Shown: positions 1-19,107, numbered from the stretch's first letter. The stretch: DNA of 64,000 nucleotides from Candidatus Coprovivens sp. (GCA_051892935.1 JBJFGS010000025.1:64001-128000), one strand, 5' to 3'. The notes: a model not told the origin generated them from the sequence alone. Numbers and translations: made by a program.

Positions 1-2
1 AA

Positions 3-584
3 GTATTCACCAGAGAGCAAAATAATTTATTTATCAAAGATCAAAAAGGAATAATTACATCATTCATAATAGAAAGTGGAGATTCCATCGAATACATAAA
101 AAGTCAATACTCTGAAAAAGTAAATATTCCTACAAATAAAATAGTTTTCAAATACAATGAAAAAGAGTTAAATGATAAACCTACGTTTGCAGATTATAAT
201 ATCCAAAGAAACACAACAATAAATGCTTATATTATATTTGATATTAATACTAAAGTGGAACAAGGTAAAGGAGAAATAATAAGTTCTCAAAAAACAGCAT
301 TAACAGGAGAAAAAATAACAATTTCAATAAAACCAAACCCAGGATATGAATTAAATAAATTAATAGTAAATGGAATTGATAAAACAAACGAAGTTCAAAA
401 CAATGAAATAATCATAGAATGTGGTGAAGAAGACATTAATATAAAAGCTAGTTACGAATTAAAAGAAGAACAAATTATTAATCCAGATACAGGAGATAAT
501 ATAATTAAATATATTATATTATTAATTACTTTTAATACAGGAATAATCCTATGTAATCTAAAAAAGATAATAAAAAAAAGTTAA
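3..584 (+). CDS. 5'-truncated surface protein: ubiquitin-like domain, divergent InlB B-repeat-like domain, NPDTG sorting signal, TM helix and basic tail
   Basis: Frame is open from base 3 into ORF 255..584. Bases 21-233 translate to NNLFIKDQKG...IEYIK...IP...KELND..TFADYNIQRNTT, which aligns without gaps to ubiquitin. C-terminus is NPDTGD + hydrophobic stretch + KKIIKKS. Confidence 0.8.
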   Translation, partial: VFTREQNNLFIKDQKGIITSFIIESGDSIEYIKSQYSEKVNIPTNKIVFKYNEKELNDKPTFADYNIQRNTTINAYIIFDINTKVEQGKGEIISSQKTALTGEKITISIKPNPGYELNKLIVNGIDKTNEVQNNEIIIECGEEDINIKASYELKEEQIINPDTGDNIIKYIILLITFNTGIILCNLKKIIKKS

Positions 585-608
585 AATAGTTTAAAGGTGA
601 AAAAAGTA

Positions 609-663
609 AAAGACAAAATCAAGAAGATTTTGCCTTTTCTTATGATATAATAAAATATATAAA
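609..663 (+). repeat. Direct repeat copy 1: hairpin plus extended -10 (TGATATAAT)
   Basis: 21-bp core CTTTTCTTATGATATAATAAA at 634-654 is identical to 1188-1208; flanks are similar. Confidence 0.75.
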
Positions 664-688: not shown

Positions 689-1150
689 ATGATTAGATTG
701 AAAAAAATTTTTATACTACTTATTATGTTAATATTTTTTATAACAGGATGTAATTCTACATCAGAAGATATTGATATTCCTAAAGGATATACCGATAAAA
801 AAGAATATTTTGATAAAAATGGATTTCAAGACTATACAGATTATGCAAAATATACTTATCCAGAAAAAGATATAATAGCAAAAAATAGTGACTATAAAAT
901 TATATCCCAAGATGACATCGAAAATATAAAAGGATACTTTGAAAACTTTAAAAACGTCATGGAATCATCCAATAGACTTGATGAATATGATTTTAATGAT
1001 GAAGTAATTAATGAAGGTGATTACATTAGAATTAAAACTAAAGAAGGAGAAAAAATCGGTGATTCAGAATACACAAAATATGATAATTATTCAATATATT
1101 ATTTTGATATAGAATCACTAACATTGTATTATATACATACTAATATATAG
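689..1150 (+). CDS. Hypothetical lipoprotein
   Basis: Basic N-terminus, hydrophobic core and lipobox-like ITGC. Confidence 0.75.
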   Translation: MIRLKKIFILLIMLIFFITGCNSTSEDIDIPKGYTDKKEYFDKNGFQDYTDYAKYTYPEKDIIAKNSDYKIISQDDIENIKGYFENFKNVMESSNRLDEYDFNDEVINEGDYIRIKTKEGEKIGDSEYTKYDNYSIYYFDIESLTLYYIHTNI

Positions 1151-1232: not shown

Positions 1233-1769
1233 GTGATTAAAATAAGTGAAATTAAATTAATAAATGGTTCATGCGCTGAACAAAAAGTAGATGCTATAGT
1301 AAATGCTGCTAACAGGAATCTCTGGGCAGGCGGAGGAATATGTGGAGCAATATTCAAAAAAGCAAGTTATAAAGAATTAACTCAAGCATGTAGCAAAATT
1401 AAAACACCATTAAAAGATGGTAATGCAGTTATAACACCATCTTTTAATATTAGTAATTGCAAATATATAATACATGCTGTAGGTCCAGATTTTGGAAAAA
1501 CACCATCAGCGTTTAAAGAGTTATACGACGCATATTATAACTCATTAATTGTACTAAGAGAAAACAATTTACATTCTATATCATTCCCATTAATAAGTTC
1601 AGGAATATTTGGCTATGGATTAGATAACCCAGTAGAAGAATCGACCAAACAATGTTTAAGAGCATATAATAAATTTATTAATGATTACCCAGATTATGAA
1701 ATTAACGTTTTACTATGTGCTTATAATAAGAAAGAATATATAATTGCTAAAGAAATACTAAATATATAA
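1233..1769 (+). CDS. Macro domain protein (ADP-ribose binding/hydrolase, YmdB/MacroD-like)
   Basis: Motifs DAIVNAAN, GGGICGAI, IIHAVGP and FPLISSGIFG. Confidence 0.93.
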   Translation: MIKISEIKLINGSCAEQKVDAIVNAANRNLWAGGGICGAIFKKASYKELTQACSKIKTPLKDGNAVITPSFNISNCKYIIHAVGPDFGKTPSAFKELYDAYYNSLIVLRENNLHSISFPLISSGIFGYGLDNPVEESTKQCLRAYNKFINDYPDYEINVLLCAYNKKEYIIAKEILNI

Positions 1770-1958: not shown

Positions 1959-3476
1959 ATGTTTAATGTATTAGATTATCTAGAAAATTCTGCAGCAAAA
2001 TATAAAAATAAAATAGCTGTAATTGAAGAAGAAAAAAATATCTCATATGAAGAACTATATCATATGAGTAAAAGAGTAGGATCATACTTTGCAACTAAAA
2101 ATATTTCCAATGAATTAATAGTAGTATTTATGGATAAAGGAATAGACACACTAATATCTTTCTTCGGAAGTGTATATGCAAATTGCTATTATAGTCTAAT
2201 AAATCCAGAGCTACCAGAAGTAAGAATTAATAATATAAAAGAAACAACAAACGTAAAATATATAATTACTAATGATGAATATGAGGAAATAGCTAAAAAG
2301 TATTTTGAAGATTTAGAAATAATAAATATTAAAACTTTGAAAGAAAACGAAATAAACGAAGAAGCACTTTCTATATCTAGAAATAATCATATTGATTGTG
2401 ATCCACTATATGTAAATTTTACTTCAGGTTCAACCGGTATTCCAAAGGGAGTGGTTGTATCACATCGTTCTGTTATAGACTTTATTGATAAATTTACTGA
2501 ACTATTTCACTTTAAGAGTAATGATATAATAGGAAATCAAGCTCCTTTTGATTTTGATGTTTCAGTAAAAGATATTTACTCATCAATAAAGATAGGAGCA
2601 ACATTAGTCATTATTCCTAAAAAGTATTTTTCTAGTCCATCAAAACTATTAGATTATATTTGTGATAATAAAGTTACAACACTAACATGGGCTGTTTCAG
2701 CATTATGTTTAATTACAACATTCCATGGATTAGAATACAAAACCCCTATAACAGTAAATAAAGTTATATTTAGTGGTGAAGTAATGCCATTAAAGCATTT
2801 GAAACAATGGATGGAACATCTTCCAAAAGCAACATTTATAAATGTGTATGGTCCAACAGAAATTACATGCAATTGCACATATCATATAATAGATAGAAAT
2901 AGAGATTACACAGATAAGATTCCGATAGGAATTCCATTTCCTAATGAAAGAATTTATCTATTAAATAATGAAAATAAACTAATTACAACCCCTAATGAAA
3001 CAGGTGAGATTTGTGTAGGGGGAACATGTCTAGGTTTAGGATACTTTAATAATAAAGAACAAACAGAAAAAGCATTTATTCAAAACCCAACAAATGAAAA
3101 GTATATTGATCTAATTTATAGAACCGGAGACTTAGGATACTATAACGAACAAAAAGAACTAATGTTTAGTGGCAGAAAAGACTTCCAAATAAAATATCAA
3201 GGACATCGTATAGAACTTGAAGAAATAGATAAAGCATTAATGAATATTGAAAACATCATTAGAAGTTGTACTATATTTGAGGAGGAAAAGAGTAAATTAT
3301 ACGGTTTTTATATAGGAGACATTGATTCAAAAGAATTACACCATAAACTAAAAGAAATACTACCTATATACATGATACCTACTAAATTAATAAAGATGAA
3401 TGAATTCCCAATGACCAAAAACGGAAAAATAGATCGTAAAAAATTAATGGAATGTAAAGGTGAAAAAAATGATTAA
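1959..3476 (+). CDS. Stand-alone amino-acid adenylation enzyme (DltA-like)
   Basis: Core motifs FTSGSTGIPKG, FDFDVSVKD, NVYGPTE, YRTGD and NGKIDR. Confidence 0.93.
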   Translation: MFNVLDYLENSAAKYKNKIAVIEEEKNISYEELYHMSKRVGSYFATKNISNELIVVFMDKGIDTLISFFGSVYANCYYSLINPELPEVRINNIKETTNVKYIITNDEYEEIAKKYFEDLEIINIKTLKENEINEEALSISRNNHIDCDPLYVNFTSGSTGIPKGVVVSHRSVIDFIDKFTELFHFKSNDIIGNQAPFDFDVSVKDIYSSIKIGATLVIIPKKYFSSPSKLLDYICDNKVTTLTWAVSALCLITTFHGLEYKTPITVNKVIFSGEVMPLKHLKQWMEHLPKATFINVYGPTEITCNCTYHIIDRNRDYTDKIPIGIPFPNERIYLLNNENKLITTPNETGEICVGGTCLGLGYFNNKEQTEKAFIQNPTNEKYIDLIYRTGDLGYYNEQKELMFSGRKDFQIKYQGHRIELEEIDKALMNIENIIRSCTIFEEEKSKLYGFYIGDIDSKELHHKLKEILPIYMIPTKLIKMNEFPMTKNGKIDRKKLMECKGEKND

Positions 3477-4629
3477 TTTTGAAAAAATAGCCAAAGAATA
3501 CGGAACACCAACATTCATATATGATATTTCAACATTAAAAAAGAGAATATCATATCTAAAAGAAAATTTACCAGAAAACATTAATCTTGTATATGCTGTT
3601 AAAGCAAACACATTTATAATCAAAGAATTAGAAAAAGACGTAGAAAGATTCGAAATATGTTCAAAAGGTGAATTCGATATATGTAATAAACTTAATATCG
3701 ATTACAAAAAAATGGTCATCTCCGGTGTCAACAAAGATGACGCATCAATAGATGAAATGATTTCAAACTATAAAGAAATAGGCAAATATACTATAGAATC
3801 AGTTAATCAATATAAACTTTTAAAAGAAAAGTGTGAAAAATATAATAGAAATATTAACGTTTTAATAAGACTTACATCAGGAAACCAATTTGGTGTAAAT
3901 GAAGAAGAAGCAATCGATATATTAAAAGAAAATAATGAATTTATTAATATATCAGGATTTGAATACTTTTCCGGTACTCAAAAACATTCAATAAAAAAGA
4001 TTAACAAAGAAATTGATTACTTAGTAGAATTCGTTAATAAAGTTGAACAAGAACTAAATATATCAATCGAAGAAATAGAATATGGACCAGGATTCCCAGT
4101 TTACTATTTCCAAGATGATGAATTTGCTGAAGATGAATTTCTAAAAGAAGTTTGTATAGCCTTAGAAAAAATGAAGAACAAAAAAATATCTTTAGAATTA
4201 GGACGTAGTATAGCAGCCAGCTGTGGTTACTACTTAACAAAAGTAGTTGATATGAAAACTAATAAAAACGGCAATCACATAATTTTAGATGGCGGAATAA
4301 ATCATCTAGTATACTATGGTCAAACAATGGCAATGCGTATTCCAAAATACAAACTATTACCCGAGAAAGAAGATACAGAAGAAACTTATAACCTATATGG
4401 TTCATTATGTACAATAAACGATATAATAATTAAAAGTTTAAAAACTAGAAAACTACAAACAGGTGATTTATTCGTTTTTGAAAACGTCGGAGCATACTCT
4501 ATAACAGAAGGAATTGCACTATTCCTTAGTAGAGACATGCCCAAAGTTATATTATACGACGAAACAAATGAATCAAAATTAATAAGAAATACAATAAAAT
4601 CAAGTGAAATTAATTGTCCAAAGTATTAG
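3469..4629 (+). CDS. Fold-type III PLP-dependent decarboxylase (LysA/ODC/BtrK family), divergent
   Basis: YGTPTFIYD, PLP lysine YAVKAN, ELGRS, GSLCTIND and GAYS; overlaps the upstream gene. Confidence 0.88.
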   Translation: MINFEKIAKEYGTPTFIYDISTLKKRISYLKENLPENINLVYAVKANTFIIKELEKDVERFEICSKGEFDICNKLNIDYKKMVISGVNKDDASIDEMISNYKEIGKYTIESVNQYKLLKEKCEKYNRNINVLIRLTSGNQFGVNEEEAIDILKENNEFINISGFEYFSGTQKHSIKKINKEIDYLVEFVNKVEQELNISIEEIEYGPGFPVYYFQDDEFAEDEFLKEVCIALEKMKNKKISLELGRSIAASCGYYLTKVVDMKTNKNGNHIILDGGINHLVYYGQTMAMRIPKYKLLPEKEDTEETYNLYGSLCTINDIIIKSLKTRKLQTGDLFVFENVGAYSITEGIALFLSRDMPKVILYDETNESKLIRNTIKSSEINCPKY

Positions 4630-16920: not shown

Positions 16921-19107
16921 ATGAAAAAAGCAGAGCTACTAATACCTGTTGGAAATCAAGAATGCTTAATAGCAGCAATTCATAATGGAGCCGATGCAGT
17001 ATACCTTGGTGGAAAAAAATTTGGAGCAAGAGCATATTCAAACAATTTCAATGAAGAAGAAATGGTAAAAGCAATAAAATTATGTCATCTATACGGAGTA
17101 AAAATATATGTAACAGTAAACACAATGATTTATAATGAAGAAATAAAAGAAGTATTAAACTATCTAAATTTTCTTTACATTAATAATGTTGATGCCGTAA
17201 TAATGCAAGATAATGGGTTAATAGAACTAGCAAGAAAATTAATACCTAATTTAGAAATACACGTTTCAACACAGGCTCATAATCATAACTCTCCAGCAAT
17301 ACAGCACTACAAAGAAATAGGATGTACTAGAGTAGTATTTGATCGAGAATCATCACTAGAATCAATAGCTAATATAACTGTAGACATAGAAAAAGAAGTC
17401 TTTATATATGGAGCACTATGTATTTGCTACTCAGGAAACTGCTTATTTAGCGCCTTAAACGGCGGTAGAAGTGCTAATAGAGGAATGTGTGTAGGTTCAT
17501 GTCGTCTACCATATACTTTATACAAAAATAACCAAAAACAAAAAGAAGGATACTTACTAAGTACAAAAGACTTAAATACACTTCCTAATCTTAAAGAAAT
17601 ACTAGATAAAAAGATTGATTCTTTAAAAGTAGAAGGTCGTATGAAAAGCAAAGAATACGTAGCAATAGTAACAAAAACATTCCGTAAACTAATTGATGAC
17701 TACTACAACAAAAAAGAAATAATCTTTACACAAGAAGATAATGAAAAACTATTACAAACATATAATAGAGAATTTACAAAAGGATACCTATTTAATGAAG
17801 ATAATATAATAAATAATAAAACATCAAATCACCAAGGAATAAAAATAGGTACAGTAATTGGCGTAAATAACAAAAAAATAACTATTAAGTTAGATAAAGA
17901 TTTATATCAAAACGATGCAATTAGATTTGATAAACCAAATAAAGGTATGTATGTAAATACCCTATATAATAATAAAGGACTACTAGTATCAAATATAGCC
18001 AAAGGAAACATATGCCAAGTAGACAATAAAGAAAGAATTATGATTAAAGACCTACTAGGCAGTAACGTTCTAAAAACAATAGATACAAAACTTAATGAAG
18101 AACTAAATCAAATAACAGAAAAGAAAATACCTATCAATATAACATTTAAAGCCAAAATAGACGCAAATAGCACACTTTCCATAACAGATAATACAAATAC
18201 CATAGAAATAGAAGGAACAATAACAGAAGAAGCTAAATCATCCCCTATAACAAAAGAACGTATTATAGAACAAATTACTAAACTAGGATCAACACCATTT
18301 ACACCAAATCAAATATTAGTAGATATAGATAGAAATATATTTATTAATATAAAAGAACTAAACGAACTAAGAAGACAAGCAGTAGAAAAACTAATAAATA
18401 AAAAAGAAGGACATTCCAAATCAGAAATACACCTTAGCATTCCATCTCCAATAGAAAAAATAAGTAATAATCCTAAAATAAGTATCTTAGTAAGAAACGA
18501 AGAACAATTAAATATAGCACTAAGAAATAATATAGACTATATATATGTAACAGAAGAAAAAATATACCAAAAATATAAAACATATAAAAATATTTATTTA
18601 AGACTAAACAGAGTAATAGAAAATCACCCAGACTATGAAAACGAAAGACTTCTATGTACAGAATTTGGTTCTATAATAAAATATAATAAAAATAATAGCA
18701 TAAGAACAGATTATTATCTAAATGTTGCAAACGATTATACCATAAACAAACTTATTAAATTAAACAGTAATTCTATTACTTTGAGTGTAGAATTATCAAT
18801 AGAACAACTAAAAAATATAAAAAATAAAGAAAAATCAGAAATATTAATATATGGAACACCAGAATGTATGATTATTAAAAATAATATATTTAATATAAAA
18901 GAAGAAAATGCCTACTTATTAGATAATAAGAACAATAAATATCCTATAATATATGATAATTATACTCATATCTTCAATCATACCAAAATTAATTTAATAG
19001 ATAAAATTCCTATATTAAAAAACTTTGGCACATATAGAATAGAATTATTAAACGAAAATATAATAGAAACACAAACAATTATAAATAAAATAAAAGATAT
19101 GTTATAA
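16921..19107 (+). CDS. Peptidase U32 family with C-terminal DUF3656-like region (RlhA-type rRNA hydroxylation protein)
   Basis: ELLIP, GADAVYLG, HVSTQ, GALCICYSGNCLFS, RSANRGMCVGSCR and KVEGRMK; 728-aa long form. Confidence 0.9.
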   Translation: MKKAELLIPVGNQECLIAAIHNGADAVYLGGKKFGARAYSNNFNEEEMVKAIKLCHLYGVKIYVTVNTMIYNEEIKEVLNYLNFLYINNVDAVIMQDNGLIELARKLIPNLEIHVSTQAHNHNSPAIQHYKEIGCTRVVFDRESSLESIANITVDIEKEVFIYGALCICYSGNCLFSALNGGRSANRGMCVGSCRLPYTLYKNNQKQKEGYLLSTKDLNTLPNLKEILDKKIDSLKVEGRMKSKEYVAIVTKTFRKLIDDYYNKKEIIFTQEDNEKLLQTYNREFTKGYLFNEDNIINNKTSNHQGIKIGTVIGVNNKKITIKLDKDLYQNDAIRFDKPNKGMYVNTLYNNKGLLVSNIAKGNICQVDNKERIMIKDLLGSNVLKTIDTKLNEELNQITEKKIPINITFKAKIDANSTLSITDNTNTIEIEGTITEEAKSSPITKERIIEQITKLGSTPFTPNQILVDIDRNIFINIKELNELRRQAVEKLINKKEGHSKSEIHLSIPSPIEKISNNPKISILVRNEEQLNIALRNNIDYIYVTEEKIYQKYKTYKNIYLRLNRVIENHPDYENERLLCTEFGSIIKYNKNNSIRTDYYLNVANDYTINKLIKLNSNSITLSVELSIEQLKNIKNKEKSEILIYGTPECMIIKNNIFNIKEENAYLLDNKNNKYPIIYDNYTHIFNHTKINLIDKIPILKNFGTYRIELLNENIIETQTIINKIKDML

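Follow-up and report, generated by a model that had tools for sequence, protein, structure and literature searches.

The closest described systems are the secreted ubiquitin homologues BfUbb and BoUbb of Bacteroides fragilis and B. ovatus, which are exported by a signal sequence (PMC3352274, PMC11467351). PMC11467351, which in 2024 added the second Bacteroides case, describes BfUbb as small and free-standing, with about 61–63% identity to human ubiquitin; killing depends on a C-terminal disulfide, uptake on a SusCD transporter, and the target is a periplasmic peptidyl-prolyl isomerase. The stretch treated here (the window), 64,000 bases of one strand from Candidatus Coprovivens sp. (GCA_051892935.1, JBJFGS010000025.1:64001-128000), begins inside a gene for a protein of 510 residues, P0001, in which a ubiquitin-family domain precedes a sortase-type signal. 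We consider it likely that P0001 is a surface protein handled by a class B sortase, in which a captured and remodelled ubiquitin, together with a second beta-grasp domain, forms an exposed stalk under a cap domain, and in which a cytoplasmic domain of the ADP-ribosyltransferase (ART) fold stands ahead of the export signal. The two ubiquitin-like (UBL) domains are called UBL1 and UBL2. UBL2 resembles BfUbb and BoUbb in that it appears to be a eukaryote-type ubiquitin fold of a gut bacterium and not a normal conjugatable modifier, but it differs from them in its 31% identity to ubiquitin, in having no Cys (residues 325–394) and in being embedded in a 510-residue protein with a sortase signal in a Gram-positive-type organism. 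Searches of the literature turned up no account of sortase-anchored proteins with ubiquitin domains, nor of a signal peptide preceded by an ART domain.

The window holds only the 3' third of the gene. Bases 3–584 (+) are listed among the open reading frames (ORFs) of the window as a 5'-open frame of 193 residues, and the complete gene is located at G000:C25:63052–64584 (L007:17052–18584), where G000 is the genome that contains the window. Extension upstream, as proposed in an earlier sequence-only reading of the window, recovered the N-terminus, since the frame reaches an ATG with a Shine-Dalgarno-like sequence ahead of it. That reading had also observed that bases 3–254 are open in frame and absent from the ORF track, and the whole frame 3..584 is indeed open; the first start codon inside the window is GTG at 255, and a track that requires a start therefore misses the bases before it. 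The window corresponds to G000:C25:64001–128000 and lies within a contig of 149,345 bases, so that its left edge is a mere cut. A check for misassembly at this edge had been asked for, and there is no sign of one, as contigs of other runs bridge it: a contig of 42,513 bases from an independent metagenome run spans L007:17366–18700, and a 900-base contig from another run spans L007:17680–18579. The runs with related sequence are labelled animal-gut or faecal metagenomes, together with one 'metagenome' and one anaerobic digester (a small share), and the G+C content of G000 is 26.5%. The gene and its surroundings contain the following features, those with L007 coordinates being upstream of the window:

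1..584, plus strand, in-window part of the P0001 gene, residues 317–510 and stop (ORF, coordinates, models)
L007:17052–17441, plus strand, predicted ART-fold domain, residues 1–130 (model, fold match)
L007:17442–17522, plus strand, internal signal-like segment, residues 131–157 (conserved A-x-A site)
L007:17523–17816, plus strand, cap domain, residues 158–255 (model)
L007:17817–18017, plus strand, UBL1, the first predicted beta-grasp domain, residues 256–322, with its last five residues at window 3..17 (DSSP of the model, Foldseek, hhalign)
24..233, plus strand, UBL2, the ubiquitin-family domain, residues 325–394 (Pfam, phmmer against PDB, hhalign)
240..461, plus strand, InlB B-repeat-like beta-sandwich, residues 397–470 (Flg_new_2 below the cut-off, all-strand model)
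480..494, plus strand, NPDTG sorting motif, residues 477–481 (sequence, family conservation)
501..560, plus strand, hydrophobic segment of the sorting signal, residues 484–503 (sequence, predicted helix 484–509)
561..584, plus strand, basic tail KKIIKKS and TAA stop (sequence)
608..638, no strand assigned, terminator-like hairpin 3' of the P0001 gene (1 found, 0.2 expected in shuffles)

The translation of bases 3–581 matches the Pfam ubiquitin family (PF00240) with E 8.1e-11 and 42.0 bits (cut-off 25.4), from residue 9 to 77 of the fragment and over positions 1–69 of the 72 in the profile, and the whole of P0001 matches it with 39.3 bits at residues 326–394; the Rad60-SLD model of Pfam scores 39.8 bits on the same fragment. 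In a phmmer search of PDB sequences, single ubiquitin chains were found with E about 3e-8 to 1e-7 (35–37 bits), and the alignment joins fragment residues 9–75 to ubiquitin 3–69 without gaps and with 21 identities in 67 columns (31%), the same number as had been counted by hand in the sequence-only reading. The profile of the UBL2 domains of the family was aligned by hhalign to a ubiquitin alignment with a probability of 99.7% (E 1.2e-25), against 2–3% for two other domains of P0001 that served as controls. UBL2 shares 22 of 67 residues (E 3e-13) with the ubiquitin domain at the head of a bacterial relative, and members of the P0001 family reach up to 47 bits against a relative that is 72–77% ubiquitin-like. 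No family was found when the whole of P0001 was scanned with NCBIfam. Judging by these matches, UBL2 is a true, strongly diverged member of the ubiquitin family.

The structure prediction agrees with this. The AlphaFold model of P0001, built on 62 family sequences, has a mean pLDDT of 85.3 with low values only at residues 131–155 and 474–483, and residues 321–400 are modelled at 87–93. According to DSSP of the model, residues 256–322 and 325–394 each form a strand-strand-helix-strand-strand unit. The best matches of a Foldseek search against PDB were linear di-ubiquitin, tetra-ubiquitin and ISG15 (E 1.8e-12 to about 1e-7), and 142–152 columns could be aligned to the two-domain targets, di-ubiquitin and ISG15, indicating that P0001 has two tandem beta-grasp domains. 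Both the profile and the structure check suggested in the sequence-only reading thus gave ubiquitin. Two consecutive beta-grasp domains are what P0001 shares with linear di-ubiquitin and ISG15, whereas it lacks a conjugation tail, is predicted to be extracellular and is found in a bacterial setting, and the relative orientation of its two domains should be different, since the target-normalised TM-scores are only 0.44–0.50. UBL1 was aligned by hhalign to UBL2 with a probability of 59% (E 9.2e-5) and to ubiquitin with 39%, so of the two only UBL2 is recognisable by sequence, and the homology of UBL1 to ubiquitin appears weak. Further copies had been suspected upstream of the window, and one more predicted ubiquitin fold does lie there (residues 256–322), as seen in the model and a weak profile match.

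The positions of the Leu8/Ile44/His68/Val70 patch of ubiquitin are occupied by Gln, Lys, Asn and Tyr in P0001. In the alignment of 62 family members, 53 have Lys in place of Ile44 and 56 have Tyr in place of Val70; the site of His68 is usually occupied by Asn or Asp, and that of Leu8 by Ser. The positions equivalent to Gly75 and Gly76 are Ile and Asn in P0001, no Gly is among the residues listed at either position in the 62 members, and 116 residues follow UBL2. The Lys at the Ile44 position and the missing C-terminal di-glycine, both noted from the window, are therefore features of the family, and UBL2 is non-conjugatable, as had been proposed, because it has no di-glycine and lies within a longer chain. 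No genes for E1, E2 or JAB/deubiquitinase proteins were found in G000 or at the related loci L008–L010, in a search that covered the neighbourhoods only (ORFs up to 12 kb away).

UBL2 is followed by an InlB-B-like domain and then by the NPDTG motif, a hydrophobic segment and a basic tail, in the order that had been described from the window. Residues 397–470 are modelled as all-strand with pLDDT above 90, and the Flg_new_2 family (PF18998, InlB B-repeat) scores 20.1 bits on the fragment and 18.0 bits on the whole of P0001 (cut-off 23.6), while relatives, including some members of the P0001 family, carry PF18998 above the cut-off. Pro478 and Thr480 are invariant (62/62), and Asn477, Gly481 and Asp482 are kept in 55, 47 and 59 members, respectively. 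G000 encodes a class B sortase domain (TIGR03064, 170.4 bits, cut-off 153.75, L035:454–2007) as well as a pilus locus with a class C sortase and an adjoining third sortase-family ORF of 190 residues. A scan of the ORFs of G000 for C-terminal signals gave 20 candidates of the NPxT type and 3 of the LPxTG type, and with NPxT so far in excess the class B enzyme looks like the housekeeping sortase of this genome. The presence of 5 penicillin-binding-protein transpeptidase and 5 Mur-ligase matches indicates that the organism has a peptidoglycan wall, to which P0001 is probably anchored by the class B sortase. Regarding the display on the cell surface that the sequence-only reading proposed, the sortase-type signal is present, and the anchoring is predicted from sequence signals.

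Substrates of class B sortases carry motifs of the NPQTN or NPKTG type, as in IsdC and the SrtB substrates of C. difficile. P0001 is like them in its NPxT-type motif, hydrophobic stretch and basic tail and in having a class B sortase in the genome, but its signal is internal, 130 residues from the N-terminus, and there is no haem-uptake context. The class B sortase domain of G000 constitutes the C-terminal 240 residues of a 518-residue protein (L035:454–2010, contig C10). The N-terminal part of this protein, of about 270 residues, matches no Pfam family, and a hydrophobic stretch comes after it, an arrangement that is unusual for a sortase. All three LPxTG candidates are located within the pilus locus with the class C sortase, on contig C30.

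Of 7,999 proteins scored, 113 reach E≤0.001 and make up the P0001 family. Some 100 agree with P0001 in length and architecture; these are metagenome proteins with 42–86% identity to P0001, and NCBI has named one of them 'ubiquitin-like protein'. When residues 322–396 were used in a word-based search, only 6 proteins turned up, all from this family. None of 26 other genomes of the genus, many of them incomplete, yielded the full-length family; in a sample of the order P0001 appears only as partial C-terminal matches, in 20 of 201 genomes with G000 included, and a sample of the bacterial family contains one distant orthologue (L031, 46% identity). Searched with PF00240, 301 genomes of the same bacterial family gave matches in 10, above the cut-off in 8, and a sample of the class gave matches in 3 of 399 scored genomes, again including G000.

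The strong PF00240 matches (87–100 bits) are ORFs of 312–565 residues with a common layout, in which a signal peptide leads directly into ubiquitin as the predicted start of the mature protein, and surface domains of the Flg_new or another type come next, before an NPxT anchor. The ubiquitin heads, seen in L014, L024–L029, L036, P0108, P0109 and P0113, are 62–77% identical to eukaryotic ubiquitin and have kept the Ile44 patch, and class B sortase genes adjoin two of the ORFs, one scoring 165.8 bits (above the cut-off of 153.75) and the other 152.6 bits (just below it). These proteins of uncultured gut Bacillota share with P0001 a ubiquitin-family domain, a repeat of the Flg_new/InlB-B type and the NPxT anchor, and residues 326–501 of P0001 are colinear with the whole mature part of a 219-residue protein from L014 (29% over 197 columns, E 1e-13). 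The difference is that their domain starts exactly at the predicted mature N-terminus, whereas UBL2 is internal, about 168 residues past the predicted cleavage site, and is diverged, doubled, patchless and placed behind the ART and cap domains. BfUbb, which the sequence-only reading gave as the classic case, is thus not the sole comparator, because wall-anchored ubiquitin recurs in the bacterial family to which P0001 belongs. The role of host mimic suggested in the same place is weakened for P0001, since the patch is replaced across its family, and it stays open for the near-eukaryotic relatives. Extracellular ubiquitin is reportedly a ligand of CXCR4, which would be relevant, if at all, to these relatives.

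In a maximum-likelihood tree, whose domain set left out L030, L031 and P0084, the P0001 family is represented by a single long-branched clade of UBL2 domains (100/100), and the eukaryotic ubiquitins and the bacterial heads fall into one cluster without internal resolution. The phylogeny that had been proposed as a check therefore gives a firm clade and leaves aside its origin and attachment. The motif ESGDSI, common to UBL2 and some of the bacterial heads, hints at a bacterial intermediate. When a ubiquitin-head relative was compared by tblastn with 50,697 phage records, no match was obtained.

In the model of P0001, residues 1–130 form an alpha/beta domain. Residues 1–255 were modelled separately (pLDDT 83.5), and a VIA comparison of this second model with 48,161 PDB representatives put KptA first (Z 9.5, rmsd 2.7, 89 aligned), followed by CC0527 (Z 8.1) and, at 7.5 or lower, by Tpt1, Rhs toxin domains, Scabin, DarT, the heat-labile and pertussis toxins and PARPs. 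Going by their titles, no fewer than 35 of the 50 matches are proteins of the ADP-ribosyltransferase fold. A sequence profile that includes distant stand-alone relatives found DarT1 (E 9.3e-4) and Tpt1 (E 0.01) in PDB, and the conserved YHYT strand and the helix after it align to both. The nearest named clusters to residues 1–130 in the protein atlas are Arr-ms and Tox-ART-HYD1 (0.92). No ART family of Pfam or NCBIfam was matched in P0001, and relatives score 17–19.7 bits against Tox-ART-HYD1 (cut-off 25). His15, Thr17, Tyr80 and Gly115 are kept at 90% or more, even in the distant stand-alone relatives. Residues 1–130 should be regarded as having a fold like that of DarT and Tpt1, with a possible enzyme activity. 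They resemble DarT and Tpt1/KptA, ART-fold proteins acting on nucleic acids, in the fold and in the N-terminal strand-helix motif around YHYT, and differ from them in scoring below the Pfam ART cut-offs and in being fused ahead of a signal peptide.

Among 1.84 billion representatives searched with a profile, no more than 70 proteins were recovered that contain the ART domain. Its place is always at the extreme N-terminus, and G000 has a single copy. In the longer proteins that were inspected (P0244, P0250 and P0273) it is followed by a hydrophobic segment and then by the cap domain, and several longer ones contain Flg_new_2, Big_2, Cadherin-like and, once, LPXTG matches to Pfam, while the remaining proteins include stand-alone forms of 130–180 residues. 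The ART domain is also the best conserved part of the P0001 family, with a mean pairwise identity of 74% compared with 63% for the cap, 54% for UBL2 and 47% for UBL1. The cap domain (158–255) is a small alpha/beta domain, and its one hint of a relationship comes from the protein atlas, with a Glug cluster at 0.85; no fold could be assigned to it by VIA, where the list is filled by matches to the ART domain.

Residues 131–157 are first basic, then hydrophobic and then rich in small residues, and look like a Sec-type signal that is predicted to be cleaved at a conserved A-x-A site, where Ala156 is kept in 61 of 62 members and position -3 is held by small residues. AlphaFold gives no confident helix at 131–155 (pLDDT about 30), whereas the C-terminal hydrophobic segment is modelled as one. 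The family member P0104 has no ART domain and opens straight with the signal peptide. It keeps six similar residues at its start, joined to the signal peptide, as if the ART domain had been cleanly deleted or inserted.

The ubiquitin-like pair is the fast-changing or exchanged part of P0001. Compared with its closest relative, P0002 (86% identity overall), the ART domain is 96% identical, the signal 96%, the cap 99% and the beta-sandwich 89%, and UBL1 and UBL2 are 76 and 63% identical. In otherwise matching contigs of the runs X3 and X4, L007:17945–18107 and 18166–18264 are replaced by diverged sequence of similar length. A diverged block of this kind between near-identical alleles (L007:17945–18264, in the window up to 264) points to recombination or diversifying selection. 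Within UBL2, the surface positions Glu341, Ser342, Gly343, Ala380–Ile384 and Tyr393 are conserved at 90% or more across the 62 members. The variability is what would be expected of an exposed surface under selection, and it speaks against an inert spacer.

The reading that we favour would work as follows. The internal Sec-type signal (131–157) would drive export, and residues 1–130 would have to stay in the cytoplasm; the exported part, from tip to wall, would consist of the GLUG-like cap, the two ubiquitin-fold domains, the InlB-B-like beta-sandwich and the NPDTG anchor. UBL2 would descend from a eukaryote-type ubiquitin that circulates in small-genome gut Bacillota as the outermost domain of wall-anchored proteins, and the UBL pair would be an exposed stalk, or else a module that binds with its own specificity, rather than a mimic recognised by ubiquitin-binding domains. 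The analysis shows the homology, the fold, the motifs and their conservation in the family, and a genome with a class B sortase and a peptidoglycan wall; from the signals and models of P0001 we infer that it is exported, cleaved and anchored to the wall, that it has a stalk, and any enzyme activity.

Several points weigh against this reading. The export and anchoring are predictions, and the Flg_new_2 match of P0001 is below the Pfam cut-off. The Z-scores for the ART fold lie in a middle range for which VIA itself advises caution, and Foldseek found no match to this domain at E≤0.001, the best being Tpt1 at 3.2e-3. Among the NPxT candidates of G000, P0001 alone has its hydrophobic stretch 138 residues past the first ATG; the first such stretch is at most 14 residues from the candidate start in 15 of the 19 others, and the other 4 have none near the N-terminus by the filter used. 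The internal signal could instead act as an uncleaved signal-anchor. The tree gives neither the attachment of UBL2, to a bacterial head or as a separate capture, nor the number of acquisitions. Finally, the conserved surface and the variable UBL domains fit poorly with a pure spacer and are more typical of a contact or antigenic surface.

This last point leads to the alternative that the UBL pair is the working end of an adhesin or mimic, which binds a partner, be it host, protist or bacterium, by a surface distinct from the Ile44 patch, and the strain variation of which is due to selection from the partner, from antibodies or from phages. In its favour, the pair is mosaic and changes fastest between close relatives, with diverged blocks in the contigs of two runs, and loop and surface residues are conserved across the 62 members. 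At their tips, relatives also carry an almost eukaryotic ubiquitin in which the patch residues are preserved, and BfUbb is, as PMC11467351 describes it, a bacterial ubiquitin homologue with a specific protein target. The replacements at the four patch positions do not suit a mimic, the tip in the P0001 subfamily is occupied by the cap domain and hence not by the UBL domains, and no partner of the pair is predicted or known, and we find this alternative unlikely. Still less expected, in our opinion, is that the gene gives two products, with a signal-peptidase cut at A-x-A that leaves the ART domain in the cytoplasm and exports a wall-anchored UBL protein facing the gut.

It is also possible that the signal stays uncleaved, so that P0001 would be a bitopic or doubly tethered envelope protein in which the cap and the UBL domains sense and the cytoplasmic ART domain is the output, as in a signalling or defence device. 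The ART domain, hydrophobic segment and cap do occur together in distant relatives that have other C-terminal domains, even LPXTG (P0105–P0107, P0244, P0250 and P0273), and the ART domain is more conserved (74%) than the UBL domains (47–54%). This is very unlikely, however, given that the signal-peptidase-type site is conserved, that the segment, unlike the C-terminal one, is not modelled as a confident helix, and that P0104 represents the exported part without an ART domain. The preferred reading, a class B sortase substrate with a remodelled ubiquitin in its stalk, has least to fear from a native bacterial beta-grasp (ThiS/MoaD, YukD or a Bil/CBASS-type Ubl), an artefact of AT-rich composition, or eukaryotic contamination or misassembly, an explanation to which the identity of just 31% and the enrichment of Lys, Asn and Ile at 26.5% G+C might lend some colour but which is extremely improbable, being contradicted by the PF00240 score well above its cut-off, by the contrast of 99.7% with 2–3% for the control domains in hhalign, by the scores of up to 47 bits against the ubiquitin-like relative, by the lack of E1, E2 or JAB genes nearby and the variation of the neighbours between loci, by the position of UBL2 inside a bacterial ORF conserved in about 100 clusters, and by the independent contigs that bridge the window edge.

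The terminator-like hairpin downstream of the P0001 gene (608..638) was called on the minus strand, but its stem is palindromic and T-rich tails follow on both strands. Promoter-like sites are not enriched, with 19 found and 17.9 expected in shuffles. An ORF at window 689–1150 (+) encodes 153 residues with a lipoprotein-type start, i.e. a hydrophobic stretch followed by Gly-Cys, and no Pfam family. Two genes downstream of P0001, at 1233–1769 (+), there is a macro-domain protein (PF01661, 98 bits), which recalls the DarT-DarG pairing; this neighbour was not seen at L008, the sole related locus with enough downstream DNA. At 1959–4629 (+) a gene for an AMP-binding enzyme, presumably DltA-like, overlaps the start of a gene of the pyridoxal-phosphate-dependent decarboxylase family, and the two may be a cell-envelope modification pair. 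Directly upstream of the P0001 gene is a Fic/DOC-family gene, both in G000 (L007:16105–16713, +) and in L009 (4678–5607), and further upstream in L009 a phage-type integrase and a NikA/MobC mobilisation protein hint at a mobile-element context. No neighbouring gene is common to G000 and L008, L009, L010 and L031, and the neighbours vary by locus.

For the biology of these organisms the finding would mean that ubiquitin has been taken up repeatedly, or has spread widely, in Gram-positive-type gut bacteria, where it has been fixed to walls and remodelled into an internal, doubled and fast-changing module. Between them, the proteins cover the range from almost eukaryotic ubiquitin to a form that has diverged greatly, all on bacterial surfaces, and this natural series could be used to test the role of extracellular ubiquitin in the gut. 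Another puzzle is posed by the enzyme-like domain that precedes a signal peptide. If two products are in fact made from the gene, every molecule of surface protein exported would go with the release or activation of one molecule of an intracellular NAD-dependent enzyme, which would constitute an undescribed link from surface display, or from phage or host attack on the surface, to a response in the cytoplasm, and a second-generation domestication of a captured eukaryotic ubiquitin.

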